Assembly (NCBI RefSeq): GCF_000146505.1
Contig: NC_017448.1
Coordinates: 90,001-122,000 of the forward strand
DNA length: 32,000 nt
Source of the DNA: Fibrobacter succinogenes subsp. succinogenes S85
Lineage (GTDB): Bacteria; Fibrobacterota; Fibrobacteria; Fibrobacterales; Fibrobacteraceae
Direction of reading: 5' to 3'
The notes under the pieces are model-generated. The model ran no database searches and was not told the origin of the DNA. It saw nothing but the letters and a program-made list of their open reading frames with translations. Position 1 is the first letter of the stretch, and the number at the start of each line of letters is the position of its first letter. The position numbers were made by a program, and so were the translations under genes. Of the stretch, positions 1-27,722 are shown in pieces.

Positions 1-214
1 TCGCATTGGAATCCGCGCTGCCCGAAGCGGGCGCTTCTTGTTTTGCAGATGAAGAAGATTCTTCAGACTCGACAGATGAAGACGATTCTTCCGTAGAAGA
101 CTCTTCTTCGCCGATTTCAGGCGCAATAGAATCAAATGCAGCCGAATTGTCGTCTGCACACCCATAAAAACATGTACCCGCAATAGCGAGTGACCAAACC
201 AACAGTTTTTTCAT
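1..214 (-). CDS. Secreted or lipoprotein-like protein, N-terminal fragment (gene runs off the window start)
   Basis: Absent from the ORF track because no stop lies in the window. Reverse-strand ATG at 214..212 reads MKKLLVWSLAIAGTCFYGCADDNSAAFDSIAPEIGEEESSTEESSSSVESEESSSS..., open to position 1. It has a basic N-terminus, hydrophobic core and Cys (signal peptide or lipobox-like), then a Ser/Glu-rich low-complexity linker. Confidence 0.5.
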   Translation of the reverse strand, partial: MKKLLVWSLAIAGTCFYGCADDNSAAFDSIAPEIGEEESSTEESSSSVESEESSSSAKQEAPASGSADSNA

Positions 215-411
215 TATTATCTCATCCCTTGAAAAAACTAAACCCACACGTTCTATAATGGAATATATAGCGGTTTTCTATATAATAGACCGCTTTTATT
301 TGTTTTTTTTATTTACTGTTGTAAACGTTGAGAAGTTTTTTAGGGGGATGGGGCGAAATGGCACAAAAAAAAGGAATTTGTGACTAATTTGTGCTGTTAT
401 TTTTCTGTCAT

Positions 412-1248
412 TTATTTATGCATGAAGAAGACCGTGGCGTGGTCGCCGTAGCCTTTTTTGTTTGCTTCGGCCATTTTTTTATCGATGTCGATGATTTCGC
501 TTTTGGTGAAATACTTGAAAATTTCCTTCGGGTCCTGCTTCCAGAACGTGATGCCCTTGGTGTACAGGTAGCTCCTCAAAATGGCAGAGTTGTTGGAGTC
601 GAAAATCATCTGCACAATCTTGAAGCCGTGCTGGTTGGCGAGTAGTTTTAGGCTGTTGATGGAGTGCAAAAAGATGTGGCGCGGGGCGTCGAGCTGGTAC
701 CAGTTCTCTTTGTATTTTTCAAACGCAATATTGGGGTAGATGGGGAGTGTCATCTTGATGGTTCCGCCATTTGCCAAAAGGCGCTTGAGGATGTCCATGG
801 TCTCGTGCGGGTCGGTCATGTGTTCGAACGAATCGTTGAGCATGATGACGTCGAATTCGCCCGTCATTTCGTGGACTGTCTTCTTGAAAATTTGAACGCC
901 GTTTTCGTACGAGATATCTTTCTCGATGAACGGGTCGCAACCGATGAGGCTCTCGATGCCTGATGTTGCCGCCATGCTACAGAGCAATGCGCCTGCGCCA
1001 CAACCTACGTCAAGTACGCGTTTGTTGTACTGCGTCTTTGCGCGGGTGACGGTGTCGGCGGGCTTGTTGTAACTGTAGTAATTGGGGCCGTAGTATTCAC
1101 TCAAGTTTTCGGGAACGCTATTGATTTGCAAACACTTGCAGTGCGGGCATTCAAAATATTCAAAATGCCCTGCGTTTAAGTACATCATTTCCTTAGCAAA
1201 GTAAGATTTCGCTTCGGATGTTTCGCCACAAATTCTGCAAGTTTTCAT
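412..1248 (-). CDS. Class I SAM-dependent methyltransferase with N-terminal Zn-ribbon
   Basis: ORF 412..1308. SAM motif I is VLDVGCGAGAL. The N-terminus has CRICG...CPHCKC (CxxC...CxxC). The start is taken at internal Met MKTCRICG (ATG 1248..1246), which overlaps the upstream stop as ATGA. Confidence 0.85.
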   Translation of the reverse strand: MKTCRICGETSEAKSYFAKEMMYLNAGHFEYFECPHCKCLQINSVPENLSEYYGPNYYSYNKPADTVTRAKTQYNKRVLDVGCGAGALLCSMAATSGIESLIGCDPFIEKDISYENGVQIFKKTVHEMTGEFDVIMLNDSFEHMTDPHETMDILKRLLANGGTIKMTLPIYPNIAFEKYKENWYQLDAPRHIFLHSINSLKLLANQHGFKIVQMIFDSNNSAILRSYLYTKGITFWKQDPKEIFKYFTKSEIIDIDKKMAEANKKGYGDHATVFFMHK

Positions 1249-1766
1249 AAAAGTCCCCAAATGATAAGTCCAACGCCAATAAGGCCAAGAATGCTTATGA
1301 TGAACCAAAAATCCCGAGGGTGGTCTTCTCTTGTTCTTACTGCAGTCAAATCTCTTACGTACAGTCTTATTTGACCATCAAACAGACAGCCTAGTACAAA
1401 TACTAAAAGGCCTAGTCCACATGTAATAAAATTAAAGGGTGTGTACTGATTTGATGTATTGTCAGAGAATCCAATGCCTACAAAAATTAAGACCAAACCT
1501 CCGATTTTGAATGTAAAAGAACCAAGAGTTGTTTTATTTAGATATTTCTCGTTGAGTTTTTGGCTGTATTGCGGCATTGGCAAAATAGAATCTTTGTCGC
1601 CGGTGAGTTCTATAATGCGTTTCTCGATAATTCTGATTCGTTCTGGAGAATCGTCTGCTTGAAAGCCATGATCACGAATTTGGCTTAAAATATCGTAGAG
1701 CTCCTCGACGGGGAGCTCACGAATTTTTTTTTCGTAATCTTTGAGATATTCTTCAGAAAACGCCAT
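1245..1766 (-). CDS. Hypothetical membrane protein (soluble N-terminal ~80 aa plus about 3 TM helices)
   Basis: 173-aa ORF. Hydrophobic segments include LVLIFVGIGF, ITCGLGLLVFVLGCLF and FWFIISILGLIGVGLIIWGLL. Its stop overlaps the methyltransferase start (ATGA). No recognised family. Confidence 0.65.
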   Translation of the reverse strand: MAFSEEYLKDYEKKIRELPVEELYDILSQIRDHGFQADDSPERIRIIEKRIIELTGDKDSILPMPQYSQKLNEKYLNKTTLGSFTFKIGGLVLIFVGIGFSDNTSNQYTPFNFITCGLGLLVFVLGCLFDGQIRLYVRDLTAVRTREDHPRDFWFIISILGLIGVGLIIWGLL

Positions 1767-1785
1767 GTGCAGAATATACTAAAGA

Positions 1786-1809
1786 AATGACGTGCCGAAA
1801 CCCGTCATT
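1786..1809 (-). terminator. Candidate hairpin between the alpha-E gene and the downstream membrane-protein gene (weak terminator or attenuator)
   Basis: aatgacg (1786-1792) pairs with cgtcatt (1803-1809) around a 10-nt loop. On the minus strand it is followed only by the weak T-rich tract tctttag. Confidence 0.3.
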
Positions 1810-1839: not shown

Positions 1840-2769
1840 TTAGCAGAAGAAATCTTTCCAGATTTGATTGCCGAGTTCATTTAGGCGAATCTGGACTTTT
1901 TCAATTTGTTCGTGAAGCCCCTGGTCGATGATTTCTTCGATGGTCGTGAACGCGATGTCGGAACGCAGCTTGCCCAGGAGGCGGATGGATTCTGCCTTGC
2001 TTTTGACAGGGTAGGCGATGTTCTTGAGACACTGTTCCGCTTTTTCCAAGCAGTAACGCAAGGAGCGCGGAAAATCTTCGGAGAGCAGGAGAAATTCCGC
2101 GACGTTATGCGGTGTCACGTTTGAATTGCGACGGTGGAACATTTCGTATGCACCGACGCTCTTGAGAACGGCGTTCCACTGCACGGTATCGAGCGCCATG
2201 CCCACCATGCTCACATCCGGAAGCAAGATGTAATACTTGACGTCCAGAATACGCGAAGTCTGGTCGGCGCGTTCGAGCAATGTGCCGAGATGCGTGAAGT
2301 TCCAGGCGACATCGTGGTTCATCGTGCCTTGAATGATGCCTGCCGTGAGCTGGCTGAATTCCTTGACGCTATTGTAAAAAGCGTGTGGACCAGCCAATGC
2401 TTCTTTAGGCATTTCGGGGTCGTTTAGTTTCAAGTAAAACTGGTTGATGGCAATCCACAGTTCCGAAGAAATTCTTTCGCGGACGCAGCGGGCGTTTTCA
2501 CGGGCGGCCCCGACGCACGAAATGATGCTGTTCGGATTTTCCTTGTCAAACGTCAGGAACATGAGCGCGTTTTCAATGGAAACATGCGCGTATTTTTTGA
2601 AGAAGTCATCGGCATTGCCGGCAATTTGAATCACCGGTTCCCAAGGGCGTTCTTCGCCGGGCAAGTCCAGTTGCAGCTGGAGGTTCACATCGATGCTTCG
2701 CGCGACGTTTTCGGCGCGTTCGATATAGCGGGCGAGCCAATAAATGGAATTTGCGACTCTGCTTAACAT
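1840..2769 (-). CDS. Alpha-E domain protein (COG2307/DUF403 family)
   Basis: 309 aa. The N-terminus MLSRVANSIYWLARYIERAENVARSIDVNL is the typical alpha-E family opening. It lies 24 nt downstream of its ATP-grasp partner, with an AGGAAG RBS. Confidence 0.88.
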   Translation of the reverse strand: MLSRVANSIYWLARYIERAENVARSIDVNLQLQLDLPGEERPWEPVIQIAGNADDFFKKYAHVSIENALMFLTFDKENPNSIISCVGAARENARCVRERISSELWIAINQFYLKLNDPEMPKEALAGPHAFYNSVKEFSQLTAGIIQGTMNHDVAWNFTHLGTLLERADQTSRILDVKYYILLPDVSMVGMALDTVQWNAVLKSVGAYEMFHRRNSNVTPHNVAEFLLLSEDFPRSLRYCLEKAEQCLKNIAYPVKSKAESIRLLGKLRSDIAFTTIEEIIDQGLHEQIEKVQIRLNELGNQIWKDFFC

Positions 2770-2793
2770 ATTACACTTCCTACTTCTAAATTC

Positions 2794-4287
2794 CTATTGT
2801 TGTTGCTGTTGTTGTTCCATCCAAAGTTTAGCTTGTCCGAGTTCTGGAGCCTTTTCGTTTTCGGCAATGACCCATGTGTCCTTGCATCCGCCGCCCTGCG
2901 AGCTGTTCACCACGATAGAACCTTTGCGGAGTGCTACGCGAGTGAGGCCACCGGGGAGAATGTAAGTCTCTCGCCCTTGCACAATGTAGGGGCGCAAATC
3001 CACATGGCGACCTTCGAAACCGCCATCGACAAAGCAAGGCACGCGGCTGAGCGAAATCATGGGCTGCGCAATGTAGTTACGCGGGTTCGCGATAATCTTG
3101 CTCTTGAACGCCTCACATTCCTCCTTTGTCGATTTTGGACCGACGAGCATGCCGTAGCCACCGGATTCGCTGGCGGCCTTAACGACCATATTTTCGATGT
3201 GGTCCAACACATGCTGCATGTGCTTTGGGTTCTCGCATACAAATGTCGGCACATTCGGGATGATCGCCTCTTCGCCGAGATAGTACTTGATAATCTGCGG
3301 CACATAGGTGTAAATCGCCTTGTCGTCGGCAACACCGCAACCGGGCGCATTCGCAAGCGCTACGTTACCAGCCTTGTAGGCTTCAATCAGTCCAGGCACG
3401 CCGAGGCAAGAATCCGGGCGGAATACCTTCGGATCCAAGAATTCGTCATCGACACGGCGGTAAATCACGTGAACCTGCTTGAGGCCGCGCGTCGTGCGGG
3501 CATAGACCTTCTTGTCTTGCACAACAAGGTCGTCTCCGGTCACGAGGTCCACGCCCATCTGCTGTGCCAAATAGGAATGTTCGTAGTACGCCGAATTGTA
3601 GATGCCGGGTGTCAGCACCACGACCTTCGGCGATGCTGTAGAATCGGCCAAGTATTCCAACGCATGGCGCAGACGGGTGCAGTATTCGTCTACGGGTCGA
3701 ATGGAACAGTTGGAAAATACCTGCGGGAACGTACGCTTTAGAATCTGACGGTTCTGCAACACGTACGAGACACCACTCGGGCATCGCATGTTGTCTTCAA
3801 GTACGTAGAATGTGCCGTCGGTATCGCGCACAAGGTCTGTGCCTGTAATGTGCGCCCAGATTCCCTTGGGCGGCACAAAGCCTTCCATCTGCGCTCTGTA
3901 AGCGGTGCAGGTGTTGATGAGGCTTTCGGGGACGACCTTGTCACGCAAAATCTTGCGGTCGTTGTAGATGTCCGTCAAAAAGCAGTTCAGCGCTTCTGTA
4001 CGCTGTTTGAGGCCCGCTTCGAGGTGCTTCCAGTCGGCGGCGCTTACAATACGCGGGATAACGTCAAAGGGGATTATTTTGTCCTTACCGTCCTTGTTGC
4101 CGTAAACCGCGAATGTAATTCCGTTATCGTAAAACGCAGATTCCGCAATGATCTGGCGGCGTTGCAGTTCTCCTTCGGGGAGCTCGTTGATTTTCGTAAA
4201 CAACGGCTCTGCAGCCGGGCGGGGAGTCCCATCCGGTAAGCAAAGCTCATCGTAAAAGCCTTCGGTGTCGTAATTTCCAAATCGCAT
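2794..4287 (-). CDS. Circularly permuted type-2 ATP-grasp protein (COG2308, DUF404/DUF407 family) with C-terminal hexa-glutamine
   Basis: ORF 2794..4323. Family-typical N-terminus MRFGNYDTEGFYDEL is preceded by an AAGGAA RBS (ATG 4287). An alternative ATG at 4323 overlaps the upstream stop as ATGA. The protein ends ...AKLWMEQQQQQQ*. Confidence 0.85.
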   Translation of the reverse strand: MRFGNYDTEGFYDELCLPDGTPRPAAEPLFTKINELPEGELQRRQIIAESAFYDNGITFAVYGNKDGKDKIIPFDVIPRIVSAADWKHLEAGLKQRTEALNCFLTDIYNDRKILRDKVVPESLINTCTAYRAQMEGFVPPKGIWAHITGTDLVRDTDGTFYVLEDNMRCPSGVSYVLQNRQILKRTFPQVFSNCSIRPVDEYCTRLRHALEYLADSTASPKVVVLTPGIYNSAYYEHSYLAQQMGVDLVTGDDLVVQDKKVYARTTRGLKQVHVIYRRVDDEFLDPKVFRPDSCLGVPGLIEAYKAGNVALANAPGCGVADDKAIYTYVPQIIKYYLGEEAIIPNVPTFVCENPKHMQHVLDHIENMVVKAASESGGYGMLVGPKSTKEECEAFKSKIIANPRNYIAQPMISLSRVPCFVDGGFEGRHVDLRPYIVQGRETYILPGGLTRVALRKGSIVVNSSQGGGCKDTWVIAENEKAPELGQAKLWMEQQQQQQ

Positions 4288-4319
4288 GTTTTGTTTCCTT
4301 ATGCTTTTAGGTTTTCTTC

Positions 4320-5201
4320 TCATTCATCCCTAAGGTCCACGTTTACGGACACTTTCAAGGTATGCTCGCCACCTCCGGTGATGACGCCCTTTAACGGGCT
4401 CACGTCCCCGAAGTCTCTACCCCAGGCGAGTATAATGTGCTCGTTACCTCCAAGCACATTGTTGGTGGGGTCCAGTTCTACCCAGCCGTGGCCGGGAATG
4501 TAGGTGCTGACCCAGGCGTGGGTCGCGTCGGCTCCGACGAGTTTGGGTTGCCCTTCGCATGGATGCGTGCGGAGGTAACCGCTCACGTAACGGCAAGGCA
4601 AATGCAGTGAACGCAAGCAGCCTATCATCAAGTGTGCAAAGTCCTGGCAGACGCCTTTTCGTCCGCGCAAGATTTCTTGCGGCTGCGCCCCGATTCTCGT
4701 CGCTCCCGGCGTGTACTTGCAATCCGTGTAGATTCGCGTCATGAGCTCGTAGGCGGCGTCAAAAATGGGGCGGCCCTGCTCAAAGCTTTCGAGCGCGTAA
4801 TTGCGGACCGATTCGTCAAACTTGGCGAAAGGGGAGGCGTAGGCGTACATCGCGGCGTCTAGTGTTTCGTCGCTTGTCGGGCGTTCCAAAAGCTTTGCGA
4901 CATCTTCCCATTTCATCGTTTCACCTTGTTTTGGCGGTTCTTCTCCTTGAACGTCTACAATGCCGGTCGTTTTGAATCTAAAGTGTGTGTGTTCCTGCTC
5001 GATGCTGAATGCCAACACCTTGTTCCCGAAAATGTCGATGCGTTCTTGCCGAATTGTTGGATTCGGTTCCACTTCAATGCTGTGGCTAATCCAATTCTGT
5101 CGGCTGACAGTTCGCGGGAGCATGTGGGCGAGGTGGTTGCTGTAAAGAACGGGGAGGCGGTAGTCGTAGACGGTCTCATGGTCAACTTGATAAATGGGCA
5201 T
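4320..5201 (-). CDS. Transglutaminase-fold family protein (N-terminal Bact_transglu_N-like region plus transglutaminase core)
   Basis: Cys-His-Asp triad context is intact: GVCQDFAHL, ATHAWVS, ELDPTN. The start is at MPIYQVDHETVYDY (ATG 5201), with a GGAGG RBS 6 nt upstream and 1 nt after the upstream TAA. Confidence 0.88.
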   Translation of the reverse strand: MPIYQVDHETVYDYRLPVLYSNHLAHMLPRTVSRQNWISHSIEVEPNPTIRQERIDIFGNKVLAFSIEQEHTHFRFKTTGIVDVQGEEPPKQGETMKWEDVAKLLERPTSDETLDAAMYAYASPFAKFDESVRNYALESFEQGRPIFDAAYELMTRIYTDCKYTPGATRIGAQPQEILRGRKGVCQDFAHLMIGCLRSLHLPCRYVSGYLRTHPCEGQPKLVGADATHAWVSTYIPGHGWVELDPTNNVLGGNEHIILAWGRDFGDVSPLKGVITGGGEHTLKVSVNVDLRDE

Positions 5202-5202
5202 C

Positions 5203-7605
5203 TTAAACCTCCGACACATCCGTGGTTGTCGCGTGGAAAACTCCAGCGCGTGGCGCATGGCTTAAGTAGAGCCTGTTTACGATTTCTGCAATCCGTTCAA
5301 TAGAATTTATCTGTGTTTTTACAAGTTTTATGAGGTTCTCCCTTTTGTTATCTACAGTTTCTGCAAGCTGTTCAATGTTTGCGAGGCGCAGTTCTGCAAG
5401 CACGCGCATCAGTTCACGGTCGAGCGGCGAGAATGTCGCTTCGCTTTGGTCGTTCCCGGGCAAGTGCTTTGCTGCTTTCCGCAATTTTGCCACCTGGTAG
5501 GCGACGCTTCGCGGGTTGGATTCGTCTGACAAAAGCAAGTCGATGACGGGGACTACTTGCAAACGGCCTCCATAGCGGCGGTGGTATGTCATGAGCCCGT
5601 CGCCGATTTCAAGAACCGCTTGCAACAAGCGCAAGTTCGTCATCTCGTCAGTGGGGGCGGTGTATAGCAGACTTTTGACCAGTTGCAGGGTGCGGATGGC
5701 GCACTCGATTTCACGACCGAGTTCCAAAAAGCGCCATTCGTGGCCTCGCGTCATGGAATCGGCTGCAAGCCCGGCCACTGCAGCGCTGTCCGATAGGACC
5801 TCCTTTAGGTAGGGCAACAGCGCTGCCGCACCTGTTCCTGCCGGCACTTCTGCAATGCCAAATCCGTTCAAGTAAAGCCATAAATCCTCCGAAATGCGGT
5901 CGCGCAACTGCATGCCGAGCTCTCGAATTTCCGTCAGCACGCATTGTATGCCGTTCTTGTTGTCCTTGCGCAAGATAAAGTAACGGAGTGCGTTTTCTGG
6001 ATCTTGCGCGAGTCTGGACTGCGTTTCATCAGTAAGCCCTGCCTTCAGAATCCATGGCAGTTCCGGCATGTCCATCCAGGATTCGTCCGAGAGCCTCACC
6101 GCGATACCTCTTGCAATACGGGCCATCATGTTCGATGATGACAATGCTCGCCCCAGCCGGAACAGGTTCTCGGCCGCACGGCTAGGCAAATCGCCTCCAG
6201 CTCTCGACGGCGTAATCGCCTGACTTGCTGGAGCGAGCAAAGAAAAGTTCGCCACAGGATTTTCCGAAAGCACCCAAATGTCTTTTTCTCCAAGTCCTTT
6301 GTCTAAAATCCCAAGGCCGCCCGGCATCACCGAAGTCCCGTTCGCAGTATTCACCGCAAAGAATCTCATCAGCGAAACTGCCGGAGTGAACTCTCCTCGG
6401 TACGCGTAAACCACTGAAACTTCCATCGATCTTTCGGCCACCCATTGCTCGGGCGCATTCTCAACCGCTTGCAACAACGCAAGCTGTGCCGTCGTCGTCA
6501 TGGTCGCATAAGTCTTGGGTTCTGCCTCCTTGAAGCTTCCTTCGTCGCGGAATGCCTTCTTGAAAATCCATTTTTCGGGCTCTGCCAAAACGCGTTCCGC
6601 ATCAGTTGCATTCCCGAGCCAAAGTGTTTCCACATCGCGCAACAGCAGTTCTTCACCCAAAAGCTCGCGGCAAATCTCCGGCAAAAACGGCTTGAACACG
6701 GGCGTCTCTAGAACGCCAGTCCCGAGAAAGTTCGCAATCGCCACGTTCCCGGCGCGGACAGAACTGATTAAGCCCACGGCCCCTTCGCCGCTGTCAATTC
6801 GCAGTTCCAGCGGGTCGCACATGCCGTCTTCCACTCGGCGGAATATGGTCCCAATCTTCTTGAGTCCCATAAGCGTCTTCATGTACACTTGCATGTTGCG
6901 AATCGCGAGGTCATCGTTTTCGACAAGTGGGATCCCGAGGTAACGGGCGATTACTGCGTCTTCTGCTCGACGCGGATTGTCCGGACTCGATGCCAAAAGT
7001 ACCACCTTGCTGGTTTCACCTTCACCTCCTATGTTCTTGTGCATGGCGTCTAGGCCATCCATCAGCTTCTTGAAAAATCCTGCCAATCGTTCCGTTTGCA
7101 TGCTGCGGAAAAGCTCCGGGAATGCACGGCTTACGCCAATGCGGTTCTCCAGTGCACGCCCTAATCCATCGGGTACTTGCAAATGGTCCGATACCGCCAC
7201 GAAAGTTCCGTCTTTGAGCCTTACGACATCGGTGGATGTCAAGTTCACAAAGACATCGCCAACCGGGTGCACTTTCCATACAACCTGCAAAAAATCCGGG
7301 TTTGCAAACAATAGCGCGGCGGGCAACTTGCCTTTTTTCCAAAGACTTTGTTCGCCATAAATGTCTTTCGCGAGCGCGTTAAAAAGCTTTGCCCTTTGCG
7401 CAACGCCCGCTTCCAGCGTTTTCCATTCTTCGGCCGTAATCACGAGAGGGATGGGGTCTGTACCCTTGTGGTTGCCTCCCATGCTCGACGAAAGATCGTT
7501 CTCATCGAGAACGTTATGCAAACGCCTGCAGCGGTGCTCGAATTCCACTTTCGACAATGCCGAAATGGACCGGATAAAAGTATCTTCTGTCTCTACACAT
7601 TCCAT
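5203..7605 (-). CDS. Fused circularly permuted ATP-grasp plus alpha-E domain protein (800 aa)
   Basis: The N-terminal half resembles the stand-alone ATP-grasp (PIPLVITAEEWKTLEAGVAQRAKLFNALAKDIYG versus IPRIVSAADWKHLEAGLKQRTEALNCFLTDIY). The C-terminal ~320 aa starts with the alpha-E-like PSRAAENLFRLGRALSSSNMMARIARG. Confidence 0.85.
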   Translation of the reverse strand: MECVETEDTFIRSISALSKVEFEHRCRRLHNVLDENDLSSSMGGNHKGTDPIPLVITAEEWKTLEAGVAQRAKLFNALAKDIYGEQSLWKKGKLPAALLFANPDFLQVVWKVHPVGDVFVNLTSTDVVRLKDGTFVAVSDHLQVPDGLGRALENRIGVSRAFPELFRSMQTERLAGFFKKLMDGLDAMHKNIGGEGETSKVVLLASSPDNPRRAEDAVIARYLGIPLVENDDLAIRNMQVYMKTLMGLKKIGTIFRRVEDGMCDPLELRIDSGEGAVGLISSVRAGNVAIANFLGTGVLETPVFKPFLPEICRELLGEELLLRDVETLWLGNATDAERVLAEPEKWIFKKAFRDEGSFKEAEPKTYATMTTTAQLALLQAVENAPEQWVAERSMEVSVVYAYRGEFTPAVSLMRFFAVNTANGTSVMPGGLGILDKGLGEKDIWVLSENPVANFSLLAPASQAITPSRAGGDLPSRAAENLFRLGRALSSSNMMARIARGIAVRLSDESWMDMPELPWILKAGLTDETQSRLAQDPENALRYFILRKDNKNGIQCVLTEIRELGMQLRDRISEDLWLYLNGFGIAEVPAGTGAAALLPYLKEVLSDSAAVAGLAADSMTRGHEWRFLELGREIECAIRTLQLVKSLLYTAPTDEMTNLRLLQAVLEIGDGLMTYHRRYGGRLQVVPVIDLLLSDESNPRSVAYQVAKLRKAAKHLPGNDQSEATFSPLDRELMRVLAELRLANIEQLAETVDNKRENLIKLVKTQINSIERIAEIVNRLYLSHAPRAGVFHATTTDVSEV

Positions 7606-7617
7606 GCTCGTTTAGTC

Positions 7618-7632
7618 GCAAAAAATGTGCCA
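7618..7632 (-). promoter_or_regulatory. Sigma-54 (RpoN) -24/-12 promoter facing the ATP-grasp operon
   Basis: Reverse complement of 7618-7632 is TGGCACATTTTTTGC, which is TGGCAC-N5-TTGC with all 10 fixed positions matched. The TTGC ends 12 nt before the ATG at 7605. Confidence 0.75.
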
Positions 7633-7720
7633 AGGCTTATGTGGCTTAAAATCGCGTATTTTTATAATCTGTATTTTACATTTATTGAATTTTTTACAGA
7701 TTTTGTTGTATAAAGGGGCG

Positions 7721-7810
7721 GCGCATTTCACCGCATTTCACCGAATTTCACCGAATTCCCCCTAAAACCGGCGCGTTTCCCCGTTTTTTACCGCAATTTC
7801 GCATTTTGGC
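7721..7810. repeat. 10-bp-phased direct repeat array (CCGNATTTCA-like) between the two sigma-54 promoters
   Basis: Consecutive 10-mers: gcgcatttca, ccgcatttca, ccgaatttca, ccgaattccc, cctaaaaccg, gcgcgtttcc, ccgtttttta, ccgcaatttc, gcattttggc. There are four near-identical units, then degenerate units that keep the CG and T-tract phase. Confidence 0.8.
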
Positions 7811-7822
7811 ACGATTTTTGCA
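7807..7822 (+). promoter_or_regulatory. Sigma-54 (RpoN) -24/-12 promoter facing the acetolactate synthase gene
   Basis: TGGCACGATTTTTGCA matches the extended consensus TGGCACG-N4-TTGCW perfectly. It lies 39 nt upstream of the ATG at 7861. Confidence 0.8.
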
Positions 7823-7860
7823 AAACACTCCGCGGAGACATTTAAAAGACCTTTAGAATT

Positions 7861-9501
7861 ATGAACACTGCTGAAGTTTTGATCAAGTCCTTAGAAAGTG
7901 AAGGCGTCAAGTACATTTTTGGAATCCCTGGAGAAGAAACTCTCGAACTGATGGAAGCGATTAAAAAGTCGTCCATCAAGTTCATTACGGTGCGTCACGA
8001 ACAGGGTGCCGCTTTTATGGCTGATGTCTATGGGCGTTTGACGGGGAAGGCGGGCGTCTGCCTTTCGACCCTTGGCCCTGGCGCTACAAACCTTGTTACG
8101 GGCGTTGCCGATGCAAACTCCGATGGCGCTCCGCTGATTGCCATTACGGGGCAGGTGGGTACAGAGCGTATGCACTTGACGAGCCATCAATATTTGGACT
8201 TGGTAAACATGTTTACGCCGATTACCAAGCGCAGTAAGCAGGTCGTTCGCCCGGATACGGTGAACGAGATTGTCCGTATTGCGTTCAAGTATGCCGAAAT
8301 GGAAAAGCCCGGTGCATGCCACATCGACTTGCCGTGCAACATTGCCGCTATGGAAGTCGAAGGCGAGGTCGCTCAAACTCCGCTGAAACACCATCGCGAA
8401 AACACCGTATACGCAAGCACCGATGCGATTCTCGCGGCGGGCGGGGTCTTTGCGAATGCAAAGCGCCCGGTGGTTCTTGTTGGCCATTCTGCTGTGCGTA
8501 ACCACGCCTCCGAGGCTTTGCGTGCATTTGTGTCCTCGTCCAAGATTCCCGTGGTCTGCACCATGATGGCAAAGGGTGTAATCCCGACTTGCGAAAAGTA
8601 TTTTATGGGCTGCATCGGACTACCGCAAAGGGATTATCCGAACATCGTCATGGAACAGGCGGACCTCGTGATTGCCGTGGGTTATGACGTCGTGGAATAC
8701 GCGCCTGCCAAGTGGAACCCGAATGGCGACAAGATGATTATTCACATCGATGAAACTCCGAACCATGTGAACAAATTCTATCAGCCCGACGAAGAAATTA
8801 TTGGCGACATCTCCGCATCTCTCGACGCGCTCTGCAGCGTTTGTCCAAACTCCTGGGAACCGGAATGGGCCATGCAAATCCGTGCGATGATGGTGGCTGA
8901 GCATTCGCGTTACGATCACGACACTAGCTTCCCGCCGACACCGCAGAAGGTGCTGCACGACATCCGCCTTGTTCTAGATGAAGAAGACATTCTGATTTCG
9001 GACGTGGGTGCGCACAAGATGTGGATTGCCCGCCAGTACAATTGCGACCATCCGAACACCTGCATTATTTCTAACGGTTTTGCGACCATGGGTATTGCGG
9101 TGCCCGGCGCGATTGCGGCAAAGCTTTTGAACCCCAAGAAAAAGGTCTTGGCGGTCACAGGTGATGGCGGCTTTATGATGAACAGCCAGGAACTCGAGAC
9201 AGCTTACCGCGAACACATCCCGTTCGTGACGCTGATTTTTACCGATGGCGGCTACGGCCTCATCAAGTGGAAACAGGAAGAACGCTACGGCGACAGCTAT
9301 GCGGTCGAATTCACGAACCCGGATTACGTCAAGTACGCCGAATCCTTGCATCTGAAGGGCTACCGCATCGAACGCACCGAAGACTTGCCGAGCACCTTGC
9401 GCGAAGCCTTCCGCCAGGACGTGCCAAGCATCATCGAGTGCCCGGTGGACTACTCCGCGAACATGGAACTCTCGCAATACCTGAAGAATTTGAAAATATA
9501 G
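7861..9501 (+). CDS. alsS: Acetolactate synthase, catabolic AlsS type (ThDP-dependent)
   Basis: 546 aa. ThDP-binding motif is GDGGFMMNSQELET. Recalled similarity to B. subtilis AlsS: RHEQGAAFMADVYGRLTGK, SHQYLDLVNMFTPITK, IGYDVVEYAPAKWNPNGDKMIIHIDE...YQPDEEIIGDI and C-terminal PVDYS. Confidence 0.85.
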   Translation: MNTAEVLIKSLESEGVKYIFGIPGEETLELMEAIKKSSIKFITVRHEQGAAFMADVYGRLTGKAGVCLSTLGPGATNLVTGVADANSDGAPLIAITGQVGTERMHLTSHQYLDLVNMFTPITKRSKQVVRPDTVNEIVRIAFKYAEMEKPGACHIDLPCNIAAMEVEGEVAQTPLKHHRENTVYASTDAILAAGGVFANAKRPVVLVGHSAVRNHASEALRAFVSSSKIPVVCTMMAKGVIPTCEKYFMGCIGLPQRDYPNIVMEQADLVIAVGYDVVEYAPAKWNPNGDKMIIHIDETPNHVNKFYQPDEEIIGDISASLDALCSVCPNSWEPEWAMQIRAMMVAEHSRYDHDTSFPPTPQKVLHDIRLVLDEEDILISDVGAHKMWIARQYNCDHPNTCIISNGFATMGIAVPGAIAAKLLNPKKKVLAVTGDGGFMMNSQELETAYREHIPFVTLIFTDGGYGLIKWKQEERYGDSYAVEFTNPDYVKYAESLHLKGYRIERTEDLPSTLREAFRQDVPSIIECPVDYSANMELSQYLKNLKI

Positions 9502-9510
9502 GAGAACGAC

Positions 9511-9684
9511 ATGGGATACATCAATAGCCTATTTACAGGGCAAACGGATTCATTCGGTGTAGCCGTATCCGAATCCTCACATTTTCTTTCCATTGACAGC
9601 ATCTCGGGGCATCCTGCCGTTTATCGCCATCTGAAACCCTGCGGCAATGTCGATGAACATAAACAGCAGAAAAAGAACTTATAA
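9511..9684 (+). CDS. Candidate small ORF (57 aa), below the ORF-track size cutoff
   Basis: The alsS stop is followed directly by a GGAG RBS (TAGGAGAACGACATG) 6 nt before the ATG at 9511. The ORF reads MGYINSLFTGQTDSFGVAVSESSHFLSIDSISGHPAVYRHLKPCGNVDEHKQQKKNL*. No recognised family. Confidence 0.35.
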   Translation: MGYINSLFTGQTDSFGVAVSESSHFLSIDSISGHPAVYRHLKPCGNVDEHKQQKKNL

Positions 9685-16954: not shown

Positions 16955-17587
16955 ATGGCTAAGGTCAAGTTAACTAAAAACGCCCTCAAGGCGGAACGTG
17001 ACGCACTGAAGCGCTTCCAACGCTATCTGCCGACGTTGCTTTTAAAGAAGCAGCAGCTGCAGATGGAAATGCGTACGCTCCAGGAGAAGGTGATGGCGAA
17101 ACGCGAAGAAGAGGATAAGCTCCGCAAGAGTATGGCTTCGTGGATTTCGCTTTTTGCCGACCCCATTGAGTGGAAAAACTATCTCTCGGTGAAGAGTGTC
17201 GAACAGGGCGAGGGTAACATTGCCGGCGTGAAAATTCCGACGTTTAGCGGCGTGGAATTCAACGTGAACATTCCGGACTTCTTTACGACTCCGGTGTGGC
17301 TCGACGATGGTATCCGCAGCTTGCAAGGTTTGATTTCCTTGCGCTTGGAACGCCGCGTGCTCGAAAAGCAGTACGAACTCCTTTCGAAGGAACTGCGTAC
17401 CACGAGCCAGCGTGTGAACCTGTTCGAAAAGGTGAAAATTCCCGAGTCTAAGGATAACATCCGCAAAATCAATATCTTCTTGGGTGACCAGCAGACAAGC
17501 GGTGTGGCCCGTAGTAAGCTTGCAAAGGGCAAGGCTACGGCTAAGGCGCTTGCACTTGACGCCCAGAGTAAGGAGGTTGCCGCATGA
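16955..17587 (+). CDS. atpD: V-type ATP synthase subunit D
   Basis: 210 aa. The N-terminus KLTKNALKAERDALKRFQRYLPTLLLKKQQL is typical of the central-stalk D subunit. Confidence 0.88.
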   Translation: MAKVKLTKNALKAERDALKRFQRYLPTLLLKKQQLQMEMRTLQEKVMAKREEEDKLRKSMASWISLFADPIEWKNYLSVKSVEQGEGNIAGVKIPTFSGVEFNVNIPDFFTTPVWLDDGIRSLQGLISLRLERRVLEKQYELLSKELRTTSQRVNLFEKVKIPESKDNIRKINIFLGDQQTSGVARSKLAKGKATAKALALDAQSKEVAA

Positions 17588-19515
17588 TTACTCCTATGAA
17601 GAAGGTGACCATTCTTACGCTTGCAAGCCATAAGGAAGAAACCCTTAAGGCTCTGCGCGAAATGGAAATTATCCATTTGACTCCGCTCCAGAATGCCGTT
17701 GGTGCTTCTGTGAACGGTGCAAAGGGTGCTGTGGCCCGCGTGCAGAAGGCTATGGAAGTCGTTCCGGATAAGCTCCGCAAGGGTGTGACGCCTGCAGCGA
17801 AAGGTGCAAGCGGTGTAACGCTCGTCGAAGAAATCCAGACGCTCATTTCGGACAAGAAAAATGCCGAAATCCAGCTGGAACAAGCCAAGGAAGAACTTGA
17901 AAAGCTCCACGCTTTTGGAAATCTCGATCCGCGTACGGTCAAGGAACTTGTCGCAAAGGGCATTTTTGTCCGCCTTTATCTCGTCGATCTTTCCAAGGAT
18001 CCTTTTGAAGTCGAAGGCGATAACGCTTACAAGCATGTCTTTGGCAAGGATGAAAATGGCACGTACATTGCCGTGTTCACGAAGGGCGATGCTCCTGCAT
18101 CTGTGAAGGGTGCGTTTACGGAACTCGCCATGCCTCTCAAGTCGCTCGAAGAATATCGAATGATTGAAGAGGAATCGAACACGACGATTTCTGCTGTGGA
18201 TGAACGCTTTGCCCAGCTTGCTTCTGTGAAGGACGATCTCGAAGACCGCCTTTTGGAAGTGACGGACCGTTACAATCTCGTGGAAGCTTCTGCAAGCATG
18301 CTCCAGAACAAGGGTTTGGCAGCTCTCCAGGGATTCTGCCCGGAACCGCGCGTTGCTGAAATCAGTGCGGCTGCGAAGGCAAACGGCTGGGGCATCCGCG
18401 TTGAAGATCCGACGGACGAAGATAACATCCCGACGCTTCTCGGCTACAACAAGCTTTCGCGCCCGATGCAGTGCCTCTATGACATCATTGGCATCTCGCC
18501 GGGCTACAACGAAGTTGACGTGAGCTCTGTGTTCCTCTGCTTCTTTAGCCTTTTCTTTGCGATGATTGTGGGCGATATGGCTTATGGCCTTTTGTTCCTC
18601 GGTCTTGCGGTGTTTGCTCGCTCGAAAATGCCGAAGGCAAGTAGTGCCGGATTCCACTTTGTGTATTTGATGAGCTGGGCGACTATCATCTGGGGCGCCA
18701 TCAATGCAAACTTTCTTGGCCTTACGCCGGAACTTGCAGGGTGGAGCTACTACCTCGATATCGCTAACTACAACTTTATCCCGGAAGGCGTGCGCAACGT
18801 GCTCTACTGGATTCGCAGCTCTGCTCCGACGGATCCGACGCGCTTTGAAGCATACAGGCAGTTCTGCGAGACGTTTACGTTCTTGCCTGCTAGCTTTGTG
18901 CCGAAGGCTGCTGGAGCATCCCAGATGCAGCATATCCAGCTGTTCTGCTTCTGCATTGCCGTTGTGCATCTGAGCATTGCTCATGCGTGGAATGTCGTTG
19001 TGCGCTTCAAGCGCAAGTCTTCGACGTTCATGGCGCAGGTGGGCTGGCTCATGGGCGCTTGGGTCATGTTCTTCCTCGCATGCAACATGGTGCTTGGAAT
19101 CGACATGCCGAAGTTCGTCATCCCGATGTTCATCGTGGAAGTTGTGCTTCTCGTGCTCTTTACGGTGCCGCCTAGCCGCCTCAAGCAGGACTTCATCAGC
19201 ATCCCGATGCTCGTGCTCGACATCGTGAACAGCTTCACCGATGTCATCAGCTATATCCGTCTCTTTGCAGTGGGTATGTCTGGTGCAGCAATCGCCGAAG
19301 CGTTCAATGGAATGCTCTCGCCGCTGTTTGGCTCTGCCGTGGGTGTTGCCGGTGCAGCTCTAGTTCTTTTGGGCGTTCATGGCCTGAACATTGCACTTGC
19401 CGTGATGGGCGTTGCTGTGCATGCCGTACGTCTTAACACACTCGAATTTTCAAATGGACTTGGTCTTGAATGGAGCGGATTTGCATTCAGCCCCTTCGCC
19501 AAGCAAAAAAATTAA
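17584..19515 (+). CDS. atpI: V-type ATP synthase subunit I (a-subunit homologue)
   Basis: 643 aa. Soluble N-terminal half and multi-TM C-terminal half, with the conserved stator Arg context ISYIRLFAVGMSG. ATGA overlap with atpD. Confidence 0.9.
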   Translation: MITPMKKVTILTLASHKEETLKALREMEIIHLTPLQNAVGASVNGAKGAVARVQKAMEVVPDKLRKGVTPAAKGASGVTLVEEIQTLISDKKNAEIQLEQAKEELEKLHAFGNLDPRTVKELVAKGIFVRLYLVDLSKDPFEVEGDNAYKHVFGKDENGTYIAVFTKGDAPASVKGAFTELAMPLKSLEEYRMIEEESNTTISAVDERFAQLASVKDDLEDRLLEVTDRYNLVEASASMLQNKGLAALQGFCPEPRVAEISAAAKANGWGIRVEDPTDEDNIPTLLGYNKLSRPMQCLYDIIGISPGYNEVDVSSVFLCFFSLFFAMIVGDMAYGLLFLGLAVFARSKMPKASSAGFHFVYLMSWATIIWGAINANFLGLTPELAGWSYYLDIANYNFIPEGVRNVLYWIRSSAPTDPTRFEAYRQFCETFTFLPASFVPKAAGASQMQHIQLFCFCIAVVHLSIAHAWNVVVRFKRKSSTFMAQVGWLMGAWVMFFLACNMVLGIDMPKFVIPMFIVEVVLLVLFTVPPSRLKQDFISIPMLVLDIVNSFTDVISYIRLFAVGMSGAAIAEAFNGMLSPLFGSAVGVAGAALVLLGVHGLNIALAVMGVAVHAVRLNTLEFSNGLGLEWSGFAFSPFAKQKN

Positions 19516-20619: not shown

Positions 20620-21642
20620 ATGCAAAACGATATTATTAAAATTTCTCCGAGTATTCATGAGTTCCTCTTGACTCATGGTTATACTGAAAACTTTACTGTG
20701 ACTCCCATTGCCGGTGCAGGCTCTGGAAGGCGTTATTTCCGTATCGCTAGCGATGAACGTAAAAGCGTCTTGCAGGTAAGTGCCGAAGTGAATGAAGATT
20801 TCAAGCACTTTGTCGAGTATTCCAAGACGTTCAGGGAATACGGCTTGCCGGTTCCGCGCGTTTATTGCGTTGACGAAAATGCCTGCCAGGTGTTGCAAGA
20901 AGACTTGGGCAAACGCAGCCTCTTGGACGAAGCATTCCCGAATGGCACGAAGGTTCTTTCGGGCAGTGCGCGTATTCTGTACCCGGAAGTGATTGATGCG
21001 CTTATCCAGTGGCAGAATGCAAGCCATCAGCTGTTCAGCCATCACACCGAAATTTGGCTCCGCCGCTTTGACTTTGCCGCCCTCAAGTGGGAATCCGATT
21101 ACTTTACCGAGAATTACCTCAAGCTCCACAAGGGCATTACGGAGATTCCGGAATCGGTTCGCAATTTCTATTCGCTCGTGGCGGTCTCTGTCGAAGCTCA
21201 GACGAATGTCTTGATGCATCGCGATTTCCAGAGCCAGAACATCATGATCCGTCCGAATTCCGAAGTCGCATTTGTCGATTTCCAGGGCGCTCGTCGCGGT
21301 TCGATGTTCTATGATATCGCATCGCTCTTGTGGGACCCGTACGTGAGCTTGCCGCTTCCGATGATCAAGGACTTCTTTGAATATTGGCGCAGCCAGTACC
21401 GCGGTACAAGAATTTATACGAAGGACGATGCCTGGGAAGGCTTTGTACACGCTAGCTTGCAGCGCTTGATGCAGGCTCTCGGCGCTTACTGCTTCCTCTC
21501 CAAGGTGAAAAAGATTGAAAAGTTCGAACAGTACATTGAACCGGGCAAGGCTCAGCTCCGTGTGCTGTTTGGCGAATTCAAGCAGATTGCCAAGGCTACA
21601 GACCCTGAAGTGTTCAAGTTTATGGATTGGGCGCTGCAGTAA
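20620..21642 (+). CDS. Aminoglycoside-phosphotransferase-fold kinase, COG3178/AmgK-like (anomeric MurNAc/GlcNAc kinase family)
   Basis: N-terminal PIAGAGSGRRYFRI matches the family G-D-A-S-x-R-x-Y-F-R signature. The catalytic loop is HRDFQSQNIMI, followed by FVDFQGA. The start is at ATG 20620 (MQNDIIK); the track ORF begins at an upstream TTG. Confidence 0.75.
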   Translation: MQNDIIKISPSIHEFLLTHGYTENFTVTPIAGAGSGRRYFRIASDERKSVLQVSAEVNEDFKHFVEYSKTFREYGLPVPRVYCVDENACQVLQEDLGKRSLLDEAFPNGTKVLSGSARILYPEVIDALIQWQNASHQLFSHHTEIWLRRFDFAALKWESDYFTENYLKLHKGITEIPESVRNFYSLVAVSVEAQTNVLMHRDFQSQNIMIRPNSEVAFVDFQGARRGSMFYDIASLLWDPYVSLPLPMIKDFFEYWRSQYRGTRIYTKDDAWEGFVHASLQRLMQALGAYCFLSKVKKIEKFEQYIEPGKAQLRVLFGEFKQIAKATDPEVFKFMDWALQ

Positions 21643-22064
21643 TGGCTCTCATCTATACGCGTATTTACGCGCAGCCTGTGGAGTTCAATCGTGCTTTGGG
21701 TTACGCTTATGACGCGCTTGTGAAAGGTCCTTATCCGTTCGACGCAATGTCAACATGGAAAGGGCTTTCGGAGCGTGTCGCTCAGGGCATTTATATGGGG
21801 CAGGGGCTATTGCTCCCGCATACGCGCGTTTCTGGCTTGCAGGAGCCGTTGATGGCTTTTGTCGTCGCTCGTGAAGGCATTACGGGGATTAAAACTCGTA
21901 ATGACGAGAAGGCGCAATTTATGTGCGTGCTTCTCTCTCCGGCGGAATCGGCAATGGCGCATACGGTTACGATTGCGAATGTGGCAAAGCGCTTGCTTGA
22001 CCCCGAATGGAAAGAAAAAGTTCTCGTCGCCACCGACGAGGAAGAACTCAAAAAAATGTTTTAA
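21642..22064 (+). CDS. PTS EIIA type-2 (PtsN/EIIA-Ntr-like) domain protein
   Basis: The active-site context GQGLLLPHTRV resembles G-I-A-I-P-H. The C-terminal FMCVLLSPAESAMAHTVTIANVAKRLLD fits the family pattern. The start ATG overlaps the upstream stop (TAATG). Confidence 0.65.
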   Translation: MALIYTRIYAQPVEFNRALGYAYDALVKGPYPFDAMSTWKGLSERVAQGIYMGQGLLLPHTRVSGLQEPLMAFVVAREGITGIKTRNDEKAQFMCVLLSPAESAMAHTVTIANVAKRLLDPEWKEKVLVATDEEELKKMF

Positions 22065-26593: not shown

Positions 26594-26618
26594 GTCGCAC
26601 AATTTAGAAATTTTATCG

Positions 26619-27722
26619 TCAAAAGTCGAGGGTCTCTTTATACCACTTGGGAATTTTGCCGTTTTTTTCTAGTGCGGAATCATAGAACATTTCGTACATG
26701 CATTCCACTTTTGAAACGTTCCAATTACAGATATTTCCAGTGAAATGAGATCCAGAAAACATTTCAGACATATCCTTGACATTGGATACATCCCATTTGC
26801 TAATATCTCCGTTAAATGGAGAATCTCTGAACAATTCGTGCATCATCGTGACATTGGACGTATTGATAAAGTTTAAGTCGCAATTTGGACCGTGTAACCA
26901 CATTGCTGCATCAATGAGATTTAGCAAGTGTTCGCGATTCAATGCGATAACGTTTCCATCGAAATCGGTTGCGTTTTCGAGCATGAGCGGATAAATTTTG
27001 TTGAGCCAATTTTTTGCTTTCCCCGTTTTTTCGAATTGGGAATCTTGGAACATTCCGTGAAGGTCTAGCAAACGTTCTGTTTCCCACTTGCTGATGTCTC
27101 CTTTGAATTCTGAACATTCGAACATGCCGTTCATATCTTTCTCATGGGAAACGTCCCAGTTACTGATGTCGCCATTGAACTTGGATCCAGCGAACATGCT
27201 GTTCATGTTTTTGACTTTGGATACGTTCCATTTGCTGATATCGCCATTGAAAGGGCTATTGCAGAACATGGAATACATGTATTCGACATTGGACACATTC
27301 CACTTGCTTATATCGCCATTGAATTGCGATTCAGCGAACATGGAATGCATGTCTTTGACATTGGAAACGTTCCAGTTACTAATGTCTCCGTTGAACAGGG
27401 ATTCGATAAACATGGAATGCATATCTTGGACATTTGATACATTCCACTTGCTTATATCGCCATTGAATACGGATTCAAAGAACATGCCGTCCATGCGTTT
27501 GACATTGGATACATCCCATTTGCTGATGTCGCCGTTGAATTTATGAAACTCATTGTTGAAAAAGCTAAATCTACTGAACAATCCTGACATATCCGTTATG
27601 TTGGATACGTCAATAAAGTTCAAATCGCAATTGGGACCATCTTTTTCGATGGCTTCTTTGATTAGTTGTTCTAGGTGATCGCGGTCGCGGGCGATGATTG
27701 AGGTGTGGGGGGATGAGAGCAT
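26619..27722 (-). CDS. DUF285/BspA-type leucine-rich-repeat protein (367 aa), no signal peptide, two repeat modules
   Basis: About 10 repeats of the 24-aa unit FNGDISKWNVSNVxxMxxMFxxSx. Two cap modules are present: RDHLEQLIKEAIEKDGPNCDLNFIDVSN and REHLLNLIDAAMWLHGPNCDLNFINTSN. The N-terminus MLSSPHTSIIARDRD has no hydrophobic signal. Confidence 0.85.
   Translation of the reverse strand: MLSSPHTSIIARDRDHLEQLIKEAIEKDGPNCDLNFIDVSNITDMSGLFSRFSFFNNEFHKFNGDISKWDVSNVKRMDGMFFESVFNGDISKWNVSNVQDMHSMFIESLFNGDISNWNVSNVKDMHSMFAESQFNGDISKWNVSNVEYMYSMFCNSPFNGDISKWNVSKVKNMNSMFAGSKFNGDISNWDVSHEKDMNGMFECSEFKGDISKWETERLLDLHGMFQDSQFEKTGKAKNWLNKIYPLMLENATDFDGNVIALNREHLLNLIDAAMWLHGPNCDLNFINTSNVTMMHELFRDSPFNGDISKWDVSNVKDMSEMFSGSHFTGNICNWNVSKVECMYEMFYDSALEKNGKIPKWYKETLDF

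Follow-up and report, generated by a model that had tools for sequence, protein, structure and literature searches.

The DNA considered here, called the window in the following, is a stretch of 32,000 nucleotides from Fibrobacter succinogenes subsp. succinogenes S85 (NC_017448.1, positions 90,001 to 122,000 of the forward strand; exact-protein look-up: CP001792.1), and all coordinates refer to it unless a comparison locus is named. At its centre of interest is an intergenic gap of 255 bp (7606–7860), from which two transcription units diverge: on the minus strand an operon headed by a gene for a circularly permuted ATP-grasp protein, and on the plus strand a gene for an acetolactate synthase-like enzyme (alsS). 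The gap holds two sequences of the type recognized by sigma-54 (RpoN), one directed at each unit. It is argued below that both are probably promoters of one nitrogen-scavenging regulon of Fibrobacter, which in S85 would have come to share an enhancer after the loss of a block of urea genes. Locus tags were set by the coordinates of the resequencing paper: Fisuc_2830 (ATP-grasp), Fisuc_2831 (acetolactate synthase-like), Fisuc_2832 (57-aa open reading frame, ORF) and Fisuc_2833 (AspRS) (PMC5442110). Loci with an L number are regions used for comparison, from Fibrobacter strains and species and from metagenomic contigs. The features are as follows (those without a strand are not oriented).

1840–7605, minus strand: four-gene operon headed by the ATP-grasp gene (Pfam matches)
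5203–7605, minus strand: Fisuc_2830, 800-aa fusion of circularly permuted ATP-grasp and Alpha-E (Pfam)
4320–5258, minus strand: transglutaminase-like protein (Pfam)
2794–4323, minus strand: second circularly permuted ATP-grasp protein (Pfam)
1840–2769, minus strand: second Alpha-E protein (Pfam)
7603–7605, minus strand: start codon (ATG) of Fisuc_2830; 12 nt separate it from the −12 TTGC upstream
7618–7632, minus strand: predicted sigma-54 promoter of the ATP-grasp operon, TGGCACATTTTTTGC, with −24 GG and −12 GC (exact match and conservation)
7635–7645: homology break, read as a deletion junction (blastn)
7646–7717: candidate enhancer (upstream activating sequence, UAS), a block of TTACA/TGTAA half-sites (conserved in L083, L084 and L087)
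7676–7680 and 7694–7698: TTACA half-sites within the candidate enhancer
7694–7713: imperfect palindrome TTACAGATTTTGTTGTATAA within the candidate enhancer
7725–7757: 10-bp tandem repeat ATTTCACCGA, 3.3 copies, with phased A/T tracts (TRF)
7807–7821, plus strand: predicted sigma-54 promoter of alsS, TGGCACGATTTTTGC; extended form TTGGCACGATTTTTGCA at 7806–7822 (exact match and conservation)
7861–9501, plus strand: Fisuc_2831, AlsS-like acetolactate synthase large subunit, 546 aa (Pfam TPP_enzyme N/M/C; NCBIfam NF006187)
9511–9684, plus strand: Fisuc_2832, conserved 57-aa ORF, 9 nt after alsS (conserved in L091, L092 and L218)

The plus strand reads TGGCACGATTTTTGCA at 7807–7822, and 7618–7632 in reverse complement gives the ATP-grasp motif listed above. 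Both contain TGGCAC-N5-TTGC exactly, at the positions and on the strands given in the original prediction, which was made from the letters of the window, and the spacing of 39 nt between the end of the plus-strand TTGC and the alsS ATG is also as it was given there. Each motif faces its adjoining gene at a workable distance. On both strands of the window there are three exact matches, compared with 0.09 expected from 100 dinucleotide-preserving shuffles, none of which (0/100) reached three; the claim that the two sites are very unlikely to be there by chance is borne out by this number, by the position of both between genes, by their correct orientation and by their conservation across the genus. 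The third exact match, TGGCACGTACATTGC at 18057–18071 on the plus strand, lies within the gene for V-ATPase subunit I (17584–19515). Three reasons led to its rejection as a member of the regulon: it is intragenic, the 15 best matches to the genus position weight matrix (PWM) described below do not include it (<7.6 bits), and upstream of it there is no cluster of half-sites. It probably arose by chance or is a non-productive intragenic site.

The strongest basis for a promoter function is comparative. The alsS motif is found in 10 of 10 loci that encode an identical AlsS, with five different spacers (GATTT, GCTTT, GGTTT, GATTG and GATTA) and with unchanged fixed positions. In other Fibrobacter species, with 81–86% protein identity, it reads TGGCACGCATTTTGC (L091/L219, L092 and L218) or TGGCATGTTTTTTGC (L094), and before the 78%-identical homologue of L095 it is AGGCACAGAATTTGC, with one mismatch. 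The ATP-grasp motif is identical in all strains with the S85 arrangement, in which the surrounding intergenic DNA is only ~89% identical. In L096 and L097 (79% and 73% protein identity), where the operon stands in unrelated contexts, it is still preceded by TTGGCACGGCTTTTGCA, and in the different genomic context of L124 by TTGGCACATTTTTTGC. Over 17 instances upstream of three genes (alsS, the ATP-grasp gene and urtA, see below) spacers and flanks drift, but GG and TTGC are all but constant. With a PWM built from these 17 instances the two window sites reach 28.2 and 23.3 bits; no other match in the window exceeds 12.3. We thus regard both sites as very probably functional sigma-54 promoters: they are conserved throughout the genus despite spacer turnover, they face genes, and facing either gene no sigma-70-type promoter above chance was found, all of which favours what had been predicted originally. 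The intergenic region has no match in Rfam. Nor did anything above chance turn up that would let the conserved sequence be explained by a terminator, a known RNA element or a promoter of the sigma-70 type, and these explanations were rejected.

The gene alsS does not always diverge from the ATP-grasp operon. In several of the strains whose AlsS is identical, and in other species, it stands back to back with the genes of an ABC transporter, the first of which, urtA, carries its own perfect motif of the same wording as that in L096 and L097, followed by a Shine-Dalgarno leader of 32–35 nt. The label of a branched-chain amino-acid transporter, suggested by Pfam, was discarded because in NCBIfam 5 of 5 subunits are above the cut-offs for UrtABCDE. 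Downstream of urtABCDE follow ureAB, ureC, ureE, ureF, ureG, two small ORFs and ureD. On one metagenomic contig (the overlapping L218 and L096) the order continues from ureD through a terminator-like hairpin and a sigma-54 promoter into the ATP-grasp operon, and L124 has both the S85-type promoter spacer and the junction from ureD to the ATP-grasp operon. The layout in the genus is therefore alsS and urtABCDE-ureABCEFGD back to back, then a sigma-54 promoter and the ATP-grasp operon; S85 is without the urt-ure block. Two details of the urease region may be added. The terminator-like hairpin of L096 (CCACGTAATAAAACGTGG plus a T-run, 2945–2972) abuts the −24 element of the ATP-grasp promoter, so that the end of the urease operon and the beginning of the next operon overlap by a few bases. 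And inside ureF, ~110 nt upstream of ureG, two Fibrobacter species have a sigma-54-like motif, CTGGCAT(G/A)GATATTGCA (L096 ~722–736, plus strand; L218 ~1075, minus strand; L219 ~1167, minus strand), a possible internal promoter for the accessory genes of urease.

The homology break at 7635–7645 indicates where the block is missing. In blastn comparisons window positions 7500–7634 match the region of the L124 type between ureD and the ATP-grasp operon with 90% identity, and this match ends 2 nt past the −24 hexamer; positions 7646–7717 match the alsS-linked block of L083 and L087, and positions 7777–7960 the alsS promoter and gene of L085. The deletion of L087 is nested and larger and shares its right end with that of S85: the two genes after the ATP-grasp operon of S85 (window 106–1795) are retained, and the sequence then resumes at 7646. 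Two promoters within 255 bp are thus most simply explained as a deletion scar that joined pre-existing promoters of one neighbourhood, the promoters standing back to back in S85 because the urt-ure block between them is absent. That the layout reflects this absence, read as a loss in S85, appears to us very likely; the direction of the change is suggested by the wide distribution of the urt-ure layout, which speaks for a loss in the S85 lineage rather than an insertion elsewhere. As the break falls immediately before the −24 element that serves the ATP-grasp operon, the promoter of this operon would have lost its own enhancer. Neither this loss nor the start codon geometry considered further below was part of the original prediction.

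The block that is left between the two promoters is the candidate enhancer. Its distance is 93 nt to the −24 element of alsS and 61 nt to that of the ATP-grasp operon, the latter being so short because of the deletion. In L124 a palindrome of the ancestral type lies ~125 nt upstream of the ATP-grasp promoter, and it is this palindrome that is gone in S85. Half-site clusters of 40–60 bp were found in every sigma-54 intergenic region compared, and in ~144 kb of Fibrobacter sequence the exact TTACA-N9/10-TGTAA occurs only in sigma-54 intergenic regions. Copies of the palindrome are exact in six independent regions and have one mismatch in four more; they lie 61–138 nt from −24, the exact ones 62–138 nt; among these ten intergenic regions the half-sites are kept and the spacers differ. 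The cluster contains at least two site types, TTAC(A/G)-N5-TGTAA and TTACA-N9/10-TGTAA. The most specifically enriched hexamer is TGTAAA/TTTACA: it occurs 18 times, whereas 1000 shuffles of these regions that preserved the dinucleotides gave 3.1 on average and never more than 9. That the half-sites are binding sites of a bacterial enhancer-binding protein (bEBP) is somewhat more probable than the contrary, judged from these patterns, and with about the same confidence we favour one shared enhancer for both S85 promoters.

On the alsS side of the enhancer lies the 10-bp repeat. Its copy number varies between near-identical strains (ATTTCACCG(A/C), ~3 copies in S85 and ~5 in L081 at 3848–3900), and it is absent from L083 and L084. 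The 10-bp A/T periodicity of S85, L081 and also of the repeat-less L083 was reached in power by 0 of 500 shuffles; it is weaker in other lineages. The consensus of the integration host factor (IHF), WATCAANNNNTTR, was found in none of seven intergenic regions, and the repeat may be an intrinsic bend that replaces an IHF site.

Is sigma-54 available in this organism, and what signal would it serve? In a survey of COG1508 the Fibrobacteres are RpoN-positive (Table 1 entry 'RpoN only 1 (2)'; PMC3372290), and in S85 two sigma-54-interacting regulators are annotated, Fisuc_0397 and Fisuc_2194 (PMC3079729). An absence of rpoN, which would have spoken against the original prediction, is hence not what the literature indicates. 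Equally in line with that prediction, no sigma-54 activator is found among the window genes. PtsN usually accompanies rpoN. The protein with a PTS EIIA-2 domain encoded at 21627–22064 (plus strand) was considered as PtsN; with 24 bits it is so far below the cut-off of 138.7 that it is not callable as such. Its gene adjoins one for an AmgK-like kinase, and rpoN is not there.

As to the signal, the company that the promoters keep, namely urea uptake and urease, points to nitrogen limitation: the urtABCDE and urease genes have the same promoter type and have the enhancer region in common with alsS, and alsS of L094 is also flanked by genes with glutamine-amidotransferase domains. Fibrobacter dies quickly once ammonia is exhausted. 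According to the genome paper, S85 is strictly ammonia-dependent and has glnK-amtB and glutamine synthetase (GS) operons. Expression values for Fisuc_2830 and Fisuc_2831 are available from the differential-expression lists in a supplement (PMC5442110). In the list for pH 5.65 the two genes are adjacent entries with log2 values of +1.543 and +1.535, and in the same samples the counts are up for amtB (Fisuc_1820), Fisuc_1821 and GS (Fisuc_1816); in the list for pH 6.1 Fisuc_2831 appears with −1.709, together with glutamate dehydrogenase (GDH) and a GS-like gene (PMC5442110). The parallel changes fit a common control, albeit indirectly. Taken together, nitrogen limitation is the rather likely signal.

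A second point concerns the beginning of the transcripts. Sigma-54-dependent transcription starts ~12 nt past the C of the −12 element. On the alsS side this predicts a start at ~7833 and a leader of ~28 nt. On the other side the ATG of the ATP-grasp gene follows TTGC after only 12 nt, and the predicted start, 7605–7606, coincides with the ATG, which would yield a messenger RNA (mRNA) that is leaderless or has a leader of 1 nt. The start at ~7606 given in the original prediction implies this geometry, which was not remarked upon there. The gene cannot begin earlier because there is an in-frame TAA 9 nt upstream of the ATG, and L096, L097 and L124 have the N-terminus M-x-CVET... in common with S85. 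The distance of 12 nt recurs before the ATP-grasp gene in L083, L096 and L124, where the 12 nt themselves differ. Before alsS the distance is 12 nt in L091/L219 and 13 nt in L094, with alsS leaders of 27–99 nt elsewhere; in the compared cases it is never shorter than 12 nt. With a start ~12 nt after −12 and an ATG at 12–13 nt, such transcripts would begin at the AUG or 1–2 nt before it. For the ATP-grasp mRNA we consider the chances of its being leaderless to be even. The leader of urtA is a classical one with AAGGAGA as Shine-Dalgarno sequence, so that both modes of translation initiation would be used. In L094 the deposited alsS model (571 aa) is 25 codons too long (4001–4075) and overlaps with the sigma-54 promoter; the conserved ATG is at 4076, 13 nt after TTGC. 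Leaderless sigma-54 transcripts are not mentioned in a transcription-start-mapping paper that covers both topics, which is no proof of novelty. The geometry of promoter and ATG is at any rate a specific prediction on leaderless translation of sigma-54 transcripts.

From these findings the following course of events is proposed. In the ancestral layout of the genus alsS would have been divergent from urtABCDE-ureABC-ureEFG..D, followed by the ATP-grasp/transglutaminase operon, with sigma-54 promoters before alsS, urtA and the ATP-grasp operon, each with its own upstream half-site cluster bound by a bEBP. In the S85 lineage the entire block for urea transport and urease would have been lost, with the break only a few bases before the −24 element that directs the ATP-grasp operon. 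The promoter of this operon, its own enhancer gone, would now lie 175 bp from the alsS promoter, with the alsS enhancer (7646–7717) in between. A bEBP encoded elsewhere in the genome, most likely activated by nitrogen limitation, would oligomerise on the single enhancer, loop to the sigma-54 holoenzyme on either side and open both promoters, the looping on the alsS side being aided by the phased A/T tracts. The alsS mRNA would begin at ~7833 and have a leader of ~28 nt, and the ATP-grasp mRNA would begin at the AUG or 1 nt before it and be translated leaderless. Motifs, conservation, gene orders, homology junction, half-site enrichment and the 12–13-nt geometry were computed here; the presence of RpoN and bEBPs, the matching expression changes and the sigma-54/NtrC control of homologous clusters in Burkholderia are from the literature; the loss in S85, the acting bEBP and its binding to the half-sites, nitrogen limitation as the signal, the points at which transcription starts and the translation of a leaderless mRNA are what we infer. 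That both motifs are sigma-54 promoters of one Fibrobacter nitrogen-scavenging regulon, with an enhancer shared in S85 since the loss of the urea block, is in our judgement likely. A further-reaching combination is more tentative and, as a whole, somewhat doubtful: sigma-54 promoters that fire onto start codons (the ATP-grasp gene in four lineages and, independently, alsS in two other species), an as yet undescribed activator that responds to nitrogen, belongs to the Fibrobacteres-Chlorobi-Bacteroidetes (FCB) superphylum and has TTACA-N9-TGTAA as its site, and the capture of an enhancer in S85 after the deletion.

Several observations weigh against the proposal of one regulon with a shared enhancer. 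In the ten intergenic regions the canonical NtrC site (TGCACC-N5-GGTGCA) is absent, the best match having 4–5 mismatches in 12 positions, and so is the NifA-type TGT-N10-ACA; the cluster is unlike either consensus. In L085, L094 and L095 the half-site palindrome is weak or absent. An alternative to which the lack of an NtrC or NifA consensus lends weight is that the half-sites are something other than an enhancer: they could bind a repressor, a nucleoid protein or a regulator of the Crp/Fnr type, or the TTTACA could be −35-like boxes, with activation coming from elsewhere or from an activator without a DNA-binding domain. Such activators exist, as exemplified by FlgR (PMC3372290), and AT-rich intergenic DNA inflates the number of such words relative to a coding background. 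But the enrichment holds against dinucleotide shuffles of the very same regions, exact 10-base palindromes are confined to these regions in the ~144 kb, the ten regions have enhancer-like distances and keep the half-sites while the spacers change, and the boxes have no −10 partner at the proper spacing. We consider this alternative unlikely.

Unlikely to about the same degree is the possibility that both sites are genuine sigma-54 promoters which are controlled separately by two bEBPs bound to different sites of the cluster, for example by a nitrogen sensor for the ATP-grasp operon and by a protein responding to pyruvate, acetoin or acid for alsS, their adjacency being a by-product of the deletion. 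There are indeed at least two site types in the cluster, and in Bacillus it is AcoR that makes acetoin metabolism sigma-54-dependent. The expression data are also less simple than the parallel at pH 5.65 suggests, since Fisuc_2830 does not appear in the pH 6.1 list in which Fisuc_2831 falls, and it should be noted that the data stem from an acid-adaptation experiment and not from a nitrogen shift and that the fold changes are modest (PMC5442110). On the other hand, in most Fibrobacter species the alsS intergenic region is common with urtA, a clear nitrogen gene, the same palindrome type is found upstream of ATP-grasp promoters that do not adjoin alsS, and the fold changes of the two genes are equal in the pH 5.65 list. 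That the two genes are controlled together from a single enhancer region, as originally proposed, is supported by the shared half-site cluster, the homology junction and the matching fold changes at pH 5.65.

A third alternative is that the minus-strand motif is a silent relic in S85 and that the ATP-grasp operon is read from a promoter further upstream, with a long leader. The ancestral palindrome has been removed at the homology break, and the remaining enhancer, ~61 nt from −24, is closer than in the lineages with an enhancer of their own (72–127 nt). Moreover, a weak sigma-70-like match on the minus strand (7886–7858, 9 of 12 positions) could in principle give such a long-leader transcript; it is no better than chance. 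The 15-mer is nevertheless unchanged in all strains that carry the deletion, in spite of the ~89% identity around it, and expression of Fisuc_2830 is observed and moves together with that of Fisuc_2831, which makes a relic improbable. Finally, that both matches are functionless chance occurrences is hardly credible: the further exact match at 18057 may itself be due to chance, but with 0.09 expected per window, and with sites that are intergenic, correctly oriented and conserved in the genus amid spacer turnover, conservation already contradicts it.

Counting against one nitrogen regulon is also the presence of an AlsS-like enzyme in it, for which carbon overflow in nitrogen-limited cells or the synthesis of branched-chain amino acids may be the reason. 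The enzyme had been taken for a catabolic acetolactate synthase. That it is AlsS-like agrees with the NCBIfam model NF006378, which it passes (536.4 bits, cut-off 510). The best match, though, is NF006187, 'acetolactate synthase large subunit' (PRK08322), with 817.4 bits (cut-off 509), and neither the catabolic equivalog model TIGR02418 (494.9 bits, cut-off 551.1) nor the biosynthetic model TIGR00118 (417 bits, cut-off 538) is reached. No gene for a small regulatory subunit or for acetolactate decarboxylase is adjacent to alsS, and 'catabolic' is not established. With AlsS/BudB Fisuc_2831 thus shares the size of a ~550-aa thiamine pyrophosphate (TPP) enzyme, the lack of an adjacent small subunit and the NF006378 assignment; it differs from them in that its best match is the separate family NF006187/PRK08322, in that it stays below TIGR02418 and in that no decarboxylase gene is nearby. 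AlsS is 100% identical across strains (L081–L090) with wholly different upstream regions (ATP-grasp operon, urtA or neither), and its nearest relatives outside Fibrobacter are from Clostridia and Treponema (64–71% identity); identical proteins beside differing DNA, together with distant relatives, are hints of a horizontal acquisition of alsS and of recombination around the locus. A scan of genome contigs with AlsS returned no Fibrobacter locus, the best matches being from Clostridia with 64–67% identity. After alsS an ORF of 56–58 aa with the motif GV.V..SS...GH..VYRH..LK is present in 4 of 4 Fibrobacter loci compared (window 9511–9684, plus strand; L091 5714–5884; L092 5659–5835; L218 11738–11908). 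Its product in S85, Fisuc_2832, has no match to a Pfam or NCBIfam family and may be a partner of the acetolactate synthase-like enzyme. The gene order of the ATP-grasp operon is the same in L081–L084, L096 and L097. Elsewhere in the window an ORF of 739 aa (24524–26743, plus strand) that has no family match is antisense to the methionyl-tRNA synthetase gene (24521–26602, minus strand) and is almost certainly a shadow ORF.

When metagenomes were scanned with the combined pattern of enhancer and promoter, only L124 among the matches listed was Fibrobacter-like, and most of the others were unrelated sigma-54 promoters from soil and gut. On soil contigs with a high GC content (~0.7) TTACAC-N8-(A/G)TGTAA is found ~105 nt upstream of CTGGCACAxCCGTTGC, and 28–29 nt past this motif begins a 341-aa MreB-like ORF (MRLxSL..FLADDLAVDLGTANTLV). 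Such loci among the matches listed are L105, L107, L122, L127, L135, L151, L152, L157, L159, L160 and L174, and also L158 and L168. The spacer varies among them but the half-sites do not, a pattern that suggests that mreB of this soil lineage is under an enhancer-dependent sigma-54 promoter.

Fibrobacter is a major degrader of fibre in the rumen, and neither a dedicated study of its rpoN or sigma-54 nor another published account of its use of sigma-54 was found in the literature. The promoters, the candidate enhancer word and the set of alsS, urt-ure and ATP-grasp-transglutaminase genes offer a testable core of a nitrogen-limitation regulon of this phylum. The type of regulation is known and the mechanism is textbook, here documented anew in a phylum for which no published sigma-54 study was found; the specific, testable additions are the enhancer sharing brought about by a deletion, a candidate word for the enhancer and promoters that would fire onto the start codon. 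With the full cluster, the S85 type and the L087 type, nature has provided a deletion series in which enhancer sharing can be tested.

Divergent pairs of sigma-54 promoters with a shared enhancer between them are known from hyc/hyp (FhlA) and zraP/zraSR (ZraR) of E. coli and from nifJ/nifH (NifA) of Klebsiella. As in these, two outward −24/−12 promoters in S85 are a few hundred bp apart with candidate activator sites in between. In S85, however, the pairing is probably secondary, having arisen in one lineage by the loss of intervening genes, and one promoter seems to use the enhancer of its neighbour. The ATP-grasp operon recalls the Anbu operon (Iyer et al., 2009), for which strong expression during nitrogen starvation has been reported (PMC6376114): genes for ATP-grasp, Alpha-E and transglutaminase-like proteins are likewise combined in one operon of Fibrobacter. 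The latter differs in that it leads with a fusion of ATP-grasp and Alpha-E, to which another gene of each kind is added downstream, and in that no gene for the proteasome-like Anbu is found in the operon or its flanks. The link of this uncharacterised ATP-grasp/Alpha-E/transglutaminase system to nitrogen starvation would herewith be extended to a distant phylum. The closest parallel is Burkholderia cenocepacia H111, in which urt/ure and the cluster of DUF404/DUF407, DUF403 and transglutaminase are among the genes most strongly dependent on NtrC and sigma-54, the cluster changing by log2 −6 to −9.4 in an ntrC mutant (PMC5491218). The same three modules, urtABCDE, urease and circularly permuted ATP-grasp (DUF404/DUF407)/Alpha-E (DUF403)/transglutaminase, carry predicted sigma-54 promoters in Fibrobacter. 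Fibrobacter differs in that it belongs to the Fibrobacterota and not to the Proteobacteria and in that its candidate enhancer does not follow the NtrC consensus, and also in that its modules are physically linked and include an AlsS-like enzyme.

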